Origin: Eledone cirrhosa
Taxonomy: Eukaryota
DNA length: 64,000 nt
Direction of reading: 5' to 3'
Assembly (NCBI GenBank): GCA_964016885.1
Contig: OZ024752.1
Coordinates: 15,748,001-15,812,000 of the forward strand
A model generated the notes under the pieces. It made no database searches, was not told the origin of the DNA, and was given only the letters and a program-made list of their open reading frames with translations. The translations under genes were made by a program, and so were the position numbers. Positions 10,105 through 57,935 of the stretch are shown piece by piece; position 1 is the stretch's first letter; the number at the start of each line of letters is the position of its first letter.

Positions 10105-10222
10105 ATAGGAAAACGTATGACCCCGACGGCAGAGCTCAAGCCCTTTCGACGGCTATTTCTGGAGTATTGAGTACACTGGTGCGTTATGGTCCATCTTGTT
10201 CCTTTCCACAATTCCTTTGTTA
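10105..10222. mobile_element. Short fold-back copy of family 7 (inverted piece + tail)
   Basis: gtatgaccccgacggcagagctcaagc matches 56148; gtattgagtac..gcgttatggtccat..caattcctttgtta matches 56757-56813. Confidence 0.75.
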
Positions 10223-10410
10223 TATATATATATATATATATATATATATATATGTGTGTGTGTGCGTGTGTGTGTGTGTGTGTGATCCATTGAATTACTG
10301 GTGCTGGTAGCAAATGATCTCTTGAAGCCCAGGCTGTGTGTATATATTAATAAAACTCTGAAATAATGTGAGAGGAAAGCATACAAAGCATTTTTGAAAA
10401 CATTATTTAA

Positions 10411-10600
10411 CTGGGGAATTGGCAGTATCGGTAGAGGGTTGAATGCCATGCTTTCTAGCATTGTTACGTCCCTTTACAGTCTGAGTTCAAATCCCGCCGA
10501 GGTTACCTTTGCCTTTCATCCTTACGGGGGTCCATAAAATAAAGTACCAGTAATGTACTGGTTAATTGCTGGCCTTATGCCTAAAGTAGAAACAATTATT
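10411..10600 (+). mobile_element. tRNA-SINE (Meta-domain-like family)
   Basis: tggcagtatcggtaga A box, gagttcaaatccc B box, gcctttcatccttacgggg. Confidence 0.9.
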
Positions 10601-11976
10601 TAACTATACATTTTTGCACATTGAGTAATGTCATTTCCTATGGGGATGTTAGAAGATATTATAATTTTCTATCATTCGCACAATACTGTAGACATTATAC
10701 GTGTGTGTGTGTGCCTGTGTACGTGTGTATGTGCGTGTATGTGTGTATGTGCGTGTATGAGAGAGAGTTAATAAAGAATGCACATAAAGAGGAACTTGCG
10801 AACTATTTAATCTGTTTATTAAAATAGTAGAAGCCATTATTTGGTTATGTCAATCTAACAAAATATATTCGTGATATAGTATTAATCATCTCTATTTTAT
10901 CTTAAACATAGTATATAAAATATCGAGCGAAGTAATGTGTAATTATAAGAATGTGTCTGTCTAGTGTGAAAGTGTTAGTTAGCTGAAATAAAGATTGAGT
11001 TAGATAAAGGAAACTTGAGTTGAAGAATAATAAACTCACTGAGGAATAAATATTGAAATACGCTGCGTGAATTGATATTGAGTGGGGAGAAATCGATAAT
11101 CAATTGACTAAATGTCAAAGAAAAAAGAAAATGCAGGACAGACAAATCACAATAATAAATCTTTATTGTATTTTTCTAATATAGGAAAACAGCTTTATAT
11201 TTAAAACTGAGTTAAAATGTAATAATACCTTTCTTGAATTTTCAAATTCCGTATTCATAATGTGAATCAGCTTCCACTGAGAACCGATACATCATTTTCC
11301 ACCTATAGAGCCAAGCATTTACTGAATGCATTGAACTGAAAGTCAAATTCTAATCATCGAAATGTCGTTAGGATAAAATTGACATTCAAATTTTACAATT
11401 TCAATTTCCTCATAGAAATTCAAGAGTTATATCCCTTTGAATCTGTTGTTTTTCCATGTTATTAAATGCAGTCTAATTAGCAACAACTCATAATCAAAAC
11501 ACATCTACTTTCATCGATGCTTAATCCATACACCCACACAGGCTCATAAAAACAGATCTAAAGAGGCGAAGTATATATATATATATATGTATATATATAT
11601 ATATATATGAGTGTGTGTGAGTATGTGTGTGTTTGTATGTATATATATATATGTATATATATTTTTTTTGTATATATGTATATATATATTTATGTATATA
11701 GGTATATATATATATATATTTATGTATAAATGTATATAAATATGTATATGTACACACATATATATATATATATATATATATTTGTATATATATATATTTA
11801 TATATATATGTATACATATATTTTTATGTGTATATGTATATATATATATATATTTATGTGTATATGTATATAAATATATGTATGTATATATGTATATATA
11901 TATATGTGTGTATATATACATATATATATATGTATGTATATATACATATATATATATGTATGTATATATGTATATA

Positions 11977-14305
11977 GCGGCGATGAATTAGGACCGAGTA
12001 AGTTAGATCGCAGATATAAAAGACAGCGAGAAGCGAAAACCAACCCAACAGTGAGTGTGTTCTGTTATTAAATATGACCCTCCCCAAGTATAACAATATA
12101 TGTATATATATATATATATATATATATATATATATATATATATATATATATATATATATATATATATATATATATATATATATATATATATATATATATA
12201 TATATGTATATATATATATATATGTATATATATATGTATGTATATATATATATATATATATGTATGTATATATATATATATATATGTATGTATATATGTA
12301 TATATATATAAATGTAAGTATGCATGCATACGTACATACATATATGTATACAGACGTACAGTAGCACGCATATATATATATATATATATATATACACATA
12401 TATATACACATATGCATACAGGTACACATACATATATGCACGCATCAGTTTAGCCGACGTTTATTATAACGCCTGCTTTGTTCGTTTGTTAGAAGTTAGA
12501 TCGCAGATCTAAAAGACAGCGAGAAGCGAAAACCAACCCAACAGTGAGTGTGTTCTGTTATTAAATATGACCCTCCCCAAGTATAACAATATATGTATAT
12601 ATATATATATATATATATATATATATATATATGTATATATATATATATATATATATATATATATATATATATGTATATATATATATGTATATATATATGT
12701 ATGTATATATATATATATATATATATATGTATGTATATATATATATATATATGTATGTATATATGTATATATATATAAATGTAAGTATGCATGCATACGT
12801 ACATACATATATGTATACAGACGTACAGTAGCACGCATATATATATATATATATATATATATATATACACATATATATACACATATGCATACAGGTACAC
12901 ATACATATATGCACGCATCAGTTTAGCTGACGTTTATTATAACGCCTGCTTTGTTCGTTTGTTTGTCAACAAATCGAACAGCCTGAATTTATGCCATACG
13001 GTGTTAAGGCAACCACGTCACCTTTTTGTTCAACACTGACACAGGAACGATGTACTAGTTTCAAGCTTGTTAGCTATCATCAGCACCGTTTACCCATCTG
13101 CCAGATAGTTGAACGTTCGAAAGTATATACTTTCGTATGCATATGTGTATATATATGTGTATATATATATATATATATATATATATGCGTGCTACTGTAC
13201 GTCTGTATACATATATGTATGTACGTATGCATGCATACTTACATTTAAGTAAGTGCCATACTAAGAGTGAGAAATGAAATTTCGTTTTCATTTTTTTCAA
13301 CCTATATATATATATATATATATATATGTATGTATATACGTATATATATATATATGTATGTATATACGTATATATATATATGTATGTATATATGTATATA
13401 TATATATACATATATATGTATGTATATATGTATATATATATACATATATATATATATATGTATATATGTATATATATATACATATATATATATATGTATA
13501 TATGTATATATATATATACATATATATATGTATGTATATATGATTATATATATACATATATATGTATGTATATATTTATATATATATACATATATATATA
13601 TGTATGTATATATATATATATATTTATTTATGTATATATATACATACATATATATATATGTATATATATATATACATATATACATATATATGTATATATA
13701 TATACATATATACATACATATATATATATGTATATATATAATCATATATAAATACATATATATATATATATGTATATATATATATACATATATACATACA
13801 TATATATATATGTATATATATATACATATATACATACATATATATATATATGTATATATATATACATATATACATACATATATATGTATGTATATATGTA
13901 TATATATACATATATATATATGTATGTATATATGTATATATATATATACATATATATATATATGTATGTATTCAAAGTTACATACATATATATATATATA
14001 TACGTATATACATACATATATATATATATATACGTATATACATACATATATATATATATACATATATACATACATATATATATACATACATATATATATA
14101 TACATACATATATATATATATATACATACATATATATATACATATATATATATATATACATATATATATATATATATACATATATTGTTATACTTGGGGA
14201 GGGTCATATTTAATAACAGAACACACTCACTGTTTGGTTGGTTTTCGCTTCTCGCTGTCTTTTATATCTGCGATCTAACTTACTCGGTCCTAATTCATCG
14301 CCGCT
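11977..14305. mobile_element. Composite tandem + inverted Penelope-like locus, family 4
   Basis: Module A at 11977-12099 and 12493-12592, inverted at 14185-14305; module B at 12309-12492 and 12778-12964, part inverted at 13186-13247; hammerhead at 13046. Confidence 0.7.
13046..13090 (-). ncRNA. Minimal type I hammerhead ribozyme, family 4
   Basis: Minus strand aacggtg-CTGATGA-tagctaacaagctt-GAAA-ctag-TA-catcgtt; GUA site. Confidence 0.88.
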
Positions 14306-55504: not shown

Positions 55505-56153
55505 AATAAACGAAGCTAAATTTTAATCATTTGACTTTTATTTAACTTTATTTTATATGTATGTATATATATATGTATGTATATATATATATCTATGTAT
55601 ATATAATATATATATTTATGTATGCATATACACTATATATATATGTACCTATGCATATATACTATATATATATATGTATGTATATATACTGTATATATAT
55701 GTATGTATATATGATATATATATATGTATGTATATATGCTATATATATATATATGTATGTATATATACTATATATATATATATATATACTATATATATTT
55801 ATATGTATGTATATATACTATATATATATATATGTATATATACGATATATATATATGTATCTATATTTATATTTATATATATATACTATATATATACTAT
55901 ATTTATATATATATATTATATATATATATATATTTATATATATATACTATATATATATATATATATATATATACATATACTATATATATATATATACATA
56001 TACTATATATATATATATATATATATATACTATATATATATATATATATATATATATACATATACTATATTTATATATATATATATACATATACTATATT
56101 TATATATATATATATACTCTCTATATATATACTATATTTATGAAAAAGTATGA

Positions 56154-56247
56154 CCCCGACGGCAGAGCTCAAGCATTTTCGGCGGCTATTTCTGGGCTAA
56201 ATTAGAACATTTAGCCTGGTGAATAAATAGCCGAACTTATCAAGAGG
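56154..56247 (-). ncRNA. Variant hammerhead (TTGATAA core), family 7, left arm
   Basis: cctc-TTGATAA-g..cggctattt...aaatagccg.c-GAAA-atgc ttgagctct gccg-TC-gggg. Confidence 0.6.
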
Positions 56248-56626
56248 GTACTTCCTTATATGGGAAGATTGTAGTTGTCAAGAGGATTGGTTAAAATTTG
56301 TTGTAAACACAAATAAGTCTATCATGGCATTTTGTGGGAGGTAGGGGTAGCTGAACTTGCCTGTAGAACAATAGGGGGGGGAGTGGAGCGGTTAAGCGTT
56401 GAAAGTGATATGTATACAGGTAGACAAGGGCTTATACACTATCCTTAGAATCTGCTGTATACATATCACTTTCAACGCTTGACCACTCCACTCACTCCCC
56501 TATTGTTCTACAGGCAAGTTCAGCCACCCCTACCTCCCACCAAATACCATGATAGACTTATTTGTGTTTACAACAAATTTTAACCAATCCACTTGACAAC
56601 TACAATCTTCCCATTTAAGGAAATGC

Positions 56627-56720
56627 CCTCTTGACAAGTTCGGCTATTTATTCACCAGGCTAAAAATATTAATTTAGCCCAGAAATAGCCGTCAAAACGG
56701 CTTGAGCTCTGCCGTCGGGG
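56627..56720 (+). ncRNA. Variant hammerhead (TTGACAA core), family 7, right arm
   Basis: cctc-TTGACAA-long stem II-aaaa-cggc ttgagctct gccg-TC-gggg; the other two copies keep GAAA. Confidence 0.6.
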
Positions 56721-57935
56721 TCATACTTTTTCCTATTTCCAACTCTACTACCCTAAGTATTGAGTACTCTGGTGCGTTATGGTCCATCTGCTTCCTTACC
56801 ACAATTCCTTTGTTATATACTATATTTATATATATATAATATATTTATATATATATACTATATATATATATATATATATATATATATATATATATATACT
56901 ATATATATATATACTATATATATATATATATATACTATATATATATATACTATATATATATATATATACTATATATATATATATACTATATATATATATA
57001 TACTATATATATACTATATATACTATATATATACTATTTATACTATATATATACTATATATACTATATATATATATACTATATATACTGTATATATATAC
57101 TATACATATACTATATATATATACTATATATACTATATATATATATATATATATATATATATATATATACTATATATAAATATATATACTATATTTATAT
57201 ATATATATATATATATATATATATATATATTTATATATATATATATTTATATATATATATATATATTTATATATATATATATATATATTTATATATATAT
57301 TTATATATATTTATATATATATTATATAAATATTTATATATATATATATATATATTTATATATATATTATATAAATATTTATATATATATATATATATAT
57401 ATTTATATATATAGTATATAAATATTTATATATATATTATATAAATATTTATATATATATATATATTTATATATAAATTATATATATATTTATATATACA
57501 TACATATATATACTATATTTATATATATGTATTATATATATATTTATATATATATACTATATTTATATATATATGTATTATATATATATATTTATATATA
57601 CATACACATACATATATATATATACTATATTTATATATATATGTATATGTATTATATATATATTTATATATACATACACATATATATATATACTATATTT
57701 ATATATATATGTATATGTATTATATATATATTTATATACACATACACATATATATTTATATATAGTTATATATAGATACACATATATAATTATACATATA
57801 TATATATATATATATATATATATATATATATATATATATATATATATATAAATATATATATATATGTGTATATATATATATGTATATATATATAAATAGA
57901 CATACATATTTATATATATATATGTATATATATAT

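Follow-up and report, generated by a model that had tools for sequence, protein, structure and literature searches.

Several repeat families in the window (the whole stretch analysed here, 64,000 nt of AT-rich animal DNA with 16,980 bases masked as simple repeats) are very probably Penelope-like elements (PLEs). In their inverted insertions an inverted arm opens at a fixed internal point of the element, and a 3' tail stands on the forward side alone. This tail and fixed-start rule is already published for PLEs and the elements are of a known type; it is their junctions that bear on the open mechanism. On balance we favour the view that copies with a fixed-base inverted arm are made by twin target-primed reverse transcription (RT) at two fixed RNA sites.

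The rule was read in one family (family 7), for which a sequence-model search found three insertions in the window (copies A, B and C) and no others. Their parts are as follows.

56139/56142-56419, minus strand: inverted arm of copy A, 260/281 identical to 56455-56735, with its outer end at the fixed internal site.
56420-56454, no strand: spacer of copy A, 35 nt.
56455-56736, plus strand: forward arm of copy A, extending to the internal start site TTCCTAT (56736).
56737-56815, plus strand: tail of copy A, 77-79 nt, on the forward side only and running into (TA)n.
10106-10162, minus strand: inverted arm of copy B, 57 bp, equal to A 56679-56736.
10163-10222, plus strand: forward piece of copy B, tail only, equal to A 56756-56815.
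54968-54976, minus strand: inverted arm of copy C, 9 bp (7 without TA).
54977-55070, plus strand: 5-nt loop and forward piece with tail of copy C, from about A 56722.

To within 1 nt, the complement of TTC(C/A)TA(T) marks the opening of all three arms. The chance of three starts falling within ±1 is ~6e-5 if 378 places are considered and 5e-4 if 138 are, and the chance of the 7-nt arm of copy C lying at the predicted place is ~4e-5. An earlier note on this DNA had described arms of ~278, ~55 and ~9 bp that begin at one point and omit the 3' tail. Both statements held: the arms measure 281, 57 and 9 bp, and the tail of ~78 nt is confined to the forward side. Copy B, flanked on the left by (GA)n, lacks 19 nt between its arm and its forward piece and shares 1 nt at the joint; the inverted segment is absent from its forward piece. 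Both arms of copy A carry C at 56678, where the family has T in 97-99.9%, and a single template source is therefore indicated. The common rare base fits one template under twin priming or fold-back synthesis alike.

The outer start site was then sought in four sequencing runs, using 56440-56816 as the family-7 reference with an 80% likeness cut-off. Two contig sets (X1 and X2) represent a single sample and two restriction-site-associated DNA (RAD) read sets represent two other samples. Loose alignment ends are reported for the best-supported 24 of 1080 and joints for 15 of 37, 10 of which change strand. The loose end behind 56736 was the largest among the ends listed in 4/4 runs (261/1490, 284/1669, 3616/16259 and 3405/15610 records). 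This amounts to 17-22% of the partly aligned records and 128-168 times the uniform expectation, in a count that pools inverted arms with tail-less single copies. Because the consensus beyond this end is (AT)n (agreement 0.63-0.81), the end is not just a break at bases private to copy A. Nor can TA homology alone pick 56736, since the family-7 terminal unit holds 11 TA and 4 TAT positions. RAD end piles at 56579, 56671 and 56806 lie on AATT, are likely restriction ends and were set aside. Reads over 56695-56728 reveal family-7 subfamilies that vary in two parts of the hammerhead described below, stem II and loop III, and in the bases preceding the start site; the GUC/GGGG cut region and the end at 56736 are retained.

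That an internal TA forms a defined second site for priming had been proposed earlier, with randomly distributed start points as the opposing outcome. In all four runs the ends instead pile up at 56736. For the anole PLE PAc, RT in vitro was shown to begin from two sites, one on either border of the tail, with cutting and extension of both target strands (PMC11167929). The 56736 pile matches these sites, and because of them a fixed internal start is expected.

The inner ends of the arms proved to be clustered as well.

56676-56682, plus strand: second fixed point, where inner (5') arm ends cluster, as seen in a depth step, joints, loose ends and copy B.

Summed contig depth in X1 rose from 26-140 thousand over 56440-56673 to 1.7-3.8 million over 56687-56790, with X2 similar, a step of ~30-fold near 56676-56682. 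RAD depth was not used for this step. Loose ends before 56679 were present in 128 and 151 contigs and led into mixed sequence (agreement 0.4). Of the listed strand-changing joints, 6/10 have one side at 56679-56682, with partners from 56679 to 56762, and a joint 56679/56679 with zero loop occurred in 10 and 7 contigs. The inner end of copy B falls within the 56679-56682 cluster. Since the rare C of copy A at 56678 sharpens the peak, the true inner boundary is taken as 56676-56682. Inner ends cluster, and arm length is therefore not simply graded; the "graded series" of the earlier note gives way to a second fixed point.

What this cluster marks is probably either the 5' end of the RNA, with transcription starting within the pseudo-long terminal repeat (pLTR), or a hard RT stop. 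We take the family-majority TTAGTC at 56676-56682 to be initiator (Inr)-like and TATTTAT, 31 nt upstream, to be TATA-like. Together they suggest a transcription start at the cluster. Alternatively, RT may stop at a hairpin ending at 56679. Hammerhead cleavage was rejected as the origin of the 5' end, the cluster lying at 56676-56682 and not at 56717.

The same layout was found in other families of the window. Family 1 comprises the following.

~412-573, minus strand: inverted arm, minimal hammerhead core at 506, 166/169 identical.
577-832, plus strand: forward arm, minimal hammerhead core at 646, predicted cut at 700, tail ~739/747-832.
48427-49433, minus strand: tail-less copy of ~1 kb that ends at the internal site, hammerhead core at 48524.
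46361-46389, minus strand: tail-only insertion of ~30 nt, in (TA)n.

The two arms (412 and 577) meet within 3 nt. The ~412-573 arm and the 48427 copy share an end point, whose position TA-like sequence leaves uncertain by up to 8 nt, and both lack the tail. To this extent the rule claimed earlier for family 1 stood. The copy at 48427 is not a palindrome arm, having no tail-bearing family-1 forward partner.

Around these insertions further inverted arrangements were observed. At 48427-50157 the minus-strand family-1 copy stands head to head with a different plus-strand element (49559-50157, with a damaged hammerhead-like motif near 50080), the two being connected by 61 nt of A/T spacer and an inverted copy of 64 bp with full identity. 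A (TA)n tract is flanked by inverted copies of neighbouring DNA at 138-317 and 1043-1221 (95% identical), a flank that appears to resemble the 3' end of an RTE-type long interspersed nuclear element (LINE). Second and third such flanks lie at 48281-48362/50200-50281 (83%) and 11968-12094/14187-14313 (99%), and the tracts hold PLE-like insertions. The inverted flank copies possibly arose when insertion duplicated the flank in inverted orientation, or when a strand switch occurred across (TA)n.

The rule extends to the families 9294/28344, 55204, 12776/44130 and 57934, with one-sided extensions of ~83, 99, 51-58 and 134 nt, tail and flank not being separable with certainty in single-copy families.

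9210-9613, minus strand: third family, copy 1 (9294); forward piece from 9444 to 9210 with a ~83-nt tail, inverted arm 9445-9613.
28338-28590, minus strand: third family, copy 2 (28344); tail-only piece 28415-28338, non-overlapping arm 28417-28590, hammerhead core at 28493.
55105-55555, minus strand: fourth family (55204); hammerhead core at 55304, ~99-nt tail, inverted arm 55424-55555.
12776-13298, plus strand: fifth family, copy 1; arm from 12776, forward piece 13135-13298, ~51-nt tail.
44130-44236, plus strand: fifth family, copy 2; 22-bp arm starting within 1-2 nt of the copy 1 point, ~58-nt tail.
57934-58188, plus strand: single-copy palindrome; 59-bp identical arms, 3-nt loop, ~134-nt one-sided extension.

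Both ends of the arm 28417-28590 match the ends of 9445-9613. Like copy B, 28344 has a forward piece without inverted sequence; its gap is ~9 nt. A hammerhead at 13083 (minus strand) probably sits in the fifth-family inverted arm, and no hammerhead was seen in the palindrome 57934-58188. A near-identical tandem duplication (12000-12490/12493-12963) bears a second copy of an inverted arm. More inverted repeats lie beside simple repeats at 16289-16955, 50989-51440, 27862-28109 and 17974-19214; their tails are ambiguous, and they are possibly older insertions of like kind.

Under twin priming, an element protein, probably a dimer, would nick both strands of a self-complementary (TA)n target. Of the two target 3' ends, one would prime at the end of the tail and one ~78 nt further upstream, at the internal TA, aided by 2-4 nt of pairing. 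Both cDNAs would extend toward the RNA 5' end, run off at a fixed 5' point and be linked in head-to-head orientation by end-joining; a shared run-off point would give near-symmetric palindromes. A tail-primed cDNA halting early would produce the deletion type (B and 28344), one passing the internal site a palindrome (A, C, 9294 and the family-1 arms at 414), and single priming a tail-only (46361) or tail-less (48427) copy. Junctions of the deletion and of the duplication type were both seen in the window copies and the reads. Non-overlap was found in 2/10 one-sided inverted insertions listed from the window (B and 28344), a count that omits 16289-16955, 50989-51440 and 27862-28109, where tails are ambiguous, and 12309-12361, which is part of a tandem duplication. 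In the reads, 4/10 listed opposite-strand joints have one side in the tail (56742, 56747, 56758 and 56762). The number of letters shared at the ten joints is 0 in eight, 1 in one and 5 in one.

Variable-length fold-back synthesis, the mechanism suggested earlier, is poorly supported by these junctions, the forward pieces of B and 28344 lacking an inverted segment and 8/10 listed joints lacking microhomology. In a version with a fixed nick, the first cDNA or an antisense RNA would prime itself and be copied back to the internal site, set by an endonuclease cut or a stop, and non-overlapping copies would be later central deletions. Self-priming was inferred from junction palindromes in PMC3846280, and PMC8557442 attributes the tail to endonuclease (EN)-mediated resolution. 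In the window 8/10 insertions overlap, several with loops of 3-5 nt, the arms of copy A share a rare base, and the joint with 5 shared letters lies at a GAGCTC palindrome. A fold-back product must hold the inverted segment in its forward piece, and its turn must be paired; B and 28344 count against this. They lack that segment, yet their arms are complete to the clustered inner end, and a later deletion would need to spare the arm down to this end every time. The zero-loop joint 56679/56679 and the eight joints sharing no letters argue in the same direction. Fold-back with a fixed nick is a possible source of the copies, if an unlikely one.

Another account is dual priming, in which the two nicks use separate RNA molecules, one bound to each protomer of a dimer, as proposed for L1 (PMC2837659). 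The long overlap in copy A (281 bp) needs one RNA stretch copied twice, and the family-1 copy at 48427 is joined in head-to-head orientation to another, hammerhead-like element (49559-50157). The two arms of A share a base present in <3% of the family, which speaks for one RNA, though two RNAs of one source gene would do likewise, and two free RNAs would not alone confine the tail to one side. We consider dual priming improbable.

Several points weigh against twin priming itself. The 8/10 overlapping insertions fit fold-back equally, and copy C (5-nt loop), 57934 (3-nt loop) and 49370-49558 (64-bp identical inverted copy) resemble snap-back products. In the PAc study no difference in start site between the strands was found, and no homology between cut site and RNA (PMC11167929). 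The one-sided tail requires an asymmetry that twin priming leaves unexplained. Inside (TA)n neither a target duplication nor an empty site can be read. Contigs and RAD reads are not independent insertions, and summed depth is not copy number. The joint table carries no orientation, head-to-head joining being inferred from copy B. Microhomology at the joints was scored against copy A, whose private changes can hide shared letters, and its private C at 56678 breaks alignments at 56679, sharpening the inner peak. Finally, no reverse transcriptase or GIY-YIG coding sequence was found, with 0 Pfam hits in 119 frames of at least 55 aa (non-LTR reverse transcriptase was recovered in 2/3 controls). 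The element enzyme is therefore assumed.

Two further explanations were considered. In the first, replication after insertion would switch strands from the (TA)n flank to the internal TA, independently of the element enzyme. At every outer start there is 1-8 nt of TA-like homology, and three of the (TA)n tracts in the window have inverted copies of adjacent DNA on both sides as well. Strand-switching does not account for the use of a single site among 11 TA and 4 TAT positions, and it gives no non-overlapping, tail-only or tail-less copies. The tail end beside (TA)n would be a better switch point, yet the tail is on both arms in 0/10 listed insertions. This explanation is very unlikely. In the second, the palindromes would be assembly or library artefacts at microsatellites: all adjoin (TA)n, and some arms are identical (57934 and 12776). 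Other arms differ by up to 12%, and like ends and inversion joints recur in whole-genome contigs and in raw reads of two other samples. An artefact is largely refuted and hardly credible.

Identification of the families as PLEs follows from their predicted type-I hammerhead motifs, and the earlier suggestion of Penelope elements agrees with this, family 7 carrying a U3-A8 form. A minimal type-I hammerhead descriptor gave eight hits in the window (three in family 1, then 28493, 55304, 13083 and the tandem pair 14754/15221) and 0 in 20 shuffles. The candidate in family 7 is as follows.

56627-56720, plus strand: candidate type-I hammerhead with a U3-A8 core at 56631-37, long stem II and closed stem III.

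Stem I is formed by 56627-30/56717-20, stem II reaches 56693, GUC occupies 56714-16 and the predicted cut follows 56716. Position G12 (56694) is A in copy A and G in ~96% of the family, and the free position N7 varies among the reads. With G12 relaxed, the U3-A8 descriptor, composed after the motif had been spotted, hit family 7 alone in the window and once in 30 shuffles; with strict G12 it gave no window hit. The C3-G8 hammerhead descriptor missed family 7, and Rfam returned no match over 56430-56820. Over the whole window the Rfam matches listed (150 of 456) consist largely of microRNA noise from repeats, besides two HH9 matches below threshold. The fold of 56630-56813 is not unusually stable (z -1.03). 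The lack of an Rfam match over family 7, this ordinary stability and the missing PLE protein speak against the PLE identification. Metagenome pattern scans gave no match, and 0/5 family-7 motifs occurred in published Naiad, Chlamys and Hydra consensus files by exact match, where line breaks can mask matches.

Other PLE features are present. Copies insert into (TA)n or AT-rich targets (window copies and the (AT)n consensus of loose ends), bear an inverted 5'-truncated copy at the 5' end (window copies and opposite-strand read joints) and have the tail on one end only in 10/10 listed inverted insertions, with lengths of 51-134 nt. The predicted type-I hammerhead motif lies in the pLTR. Copies of family 7 and the other families are short terminal fragments, with no full-length element in the window. 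Two other identities were rejected. The Naiad clade (N-terminal EN, no canonical hammerhead) does not agree with the hammerhead motifs or with the 0/5 exact motif matches. A miniature inverted-repeat transposable element (MITE) or foldback DNA transposon would not have one side longer by a tail, and B, 28344, 46361 and 48427 lack paired arms. A tandem dimer at 14622-15481 (466-bp unit, 97% identical, one type-I hammerhead in each) was observed as well and is retrozyme-like (Rfam HH9 below the gathering score).

These results may be joined in a broader scheme, which we offer tentatively and think rather unlikely as a whole. Twin priming would be the normal PLE integration. Family-7 transcription would start inside hammerhead stem II (A56676), so that the RNA 5' end bears both priming sites and half a ribozyme, and the complete 3' ribozyme would cut the distal priming sites off. 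Most priming would then take place on the 5' repeat, with run-off after ~60 and ~135 nt, so that mini-palindromes are produced in bulk, and the proportion of mini to full-length copies would be determined by the ribozyme.

The window also contains unrelated repeats. Several non-LTR retrotransposon copies with reverse transcriptase (Pfam RVT_1 and zf-RVT), 89-99% identical, lie at 21617-21961, 29627-33872 and 37424-38262, with further LINE-like frames at 38668-42087. An abundant family of ~170-220 bp, like a short interspersed nuclear element (SINE) and partly tandem, occupies 9712-9881, 10418-10613, 22047-22491, 27132-27338, 33936-34142, 36965-37069, 52663-52856, 61562-62025 and 63439-63582. 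A dispersed repeat of the window presumably resembles an octopus SINE. At 22983-24611 there is a degenerate short-unit tandem array with inverted organisation inside.

The headline rule will not surprise a PLE specialist. PLEs are described as having an inverted truncated copy, a tail of 30-40 nt at one end and a preference for (TA)n (PMC3846280, PMC8557442). PMC8557442 lists the formation of the inverted repeats and tails as an unresolved matter, and the conjectures in print diverge, invoking either antisense-RNA self-priming or endonuclease resolution. High-copy family 7 offers many junctions with two fixed coordinates, by which twin priming, dual priming and fold-back are separable by counting. 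Many short palindromes of (TA)n-rich genomes, liable to be mistaken for MITEs or microRNA hairpins, are explained by it as well.

Like the EN-bearing (EN+) PLEs (Penelope/Poseidon, Neptune, Nematis and Naiad), the window families show a head-to-head inverted copy, a one-end tail, heavy 5' truncation, (TA)n targets and a type-I hammerhead in the terminal repeat. They differ in that tails are 51-134 nt against the published 30-40 nt, inner ends are clustered too, and the copies are known from terminal fragments without an open reading frame. The likeness to PAc (Poseidon, Anolis) includes two start sites that bound the tail, AT-rich targets, and nicking and extension of both strands (PMC11167929). 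The PAc protein is a predicted dimer, and its hammerhead lies upstream of the start sites, as here, with cleavage not required (PMC11167929). Unlike in PAc, for which the text consulted reports no target-RNA homology and does not explain inverted arms, both sites here end in TA, at distances of 20 and ~98 nt beyond the predicted hammerhead cut.

Twin priming of L1 yields deletion and duplication junctions, with a variable second site (bioRxiv 2024.08.27.596794; PMC2837659). As in twin or dual priming of L1, two target ends would prime two cDNAs, joints are of deletion or duplication type, and homology is little in some sets. In L1 the first site is a poly(A) tail and the second a chance match that varies, whereas here the second site is fixed; there is no poly(A) here, and duplications can span the whole arm. 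The hammerheads of families 1, 9294 and 55204, with a minimal motif and palindromic stem III, are like those of PLEs and non-LTR retrozymes (PMC4209133; bioRxiv 2026.07.22.740005). The copies here differ in being inverted and not in tandem arrays. A U3-A8 core, as predicted in family 7, is reported in Schistosoma PLEs, among them Cercyon (PMC4209133), and pairs of opposite-strand hammerheads 100-700 bp apart, noted in Schistosoma, can be likened to the families here. As a further difference, the U3-A8 core of family 7 goes together with a stem II domain of 56 nt and a closed stem III of 5 bp, and the 5' half of the motif is absent from most copies.

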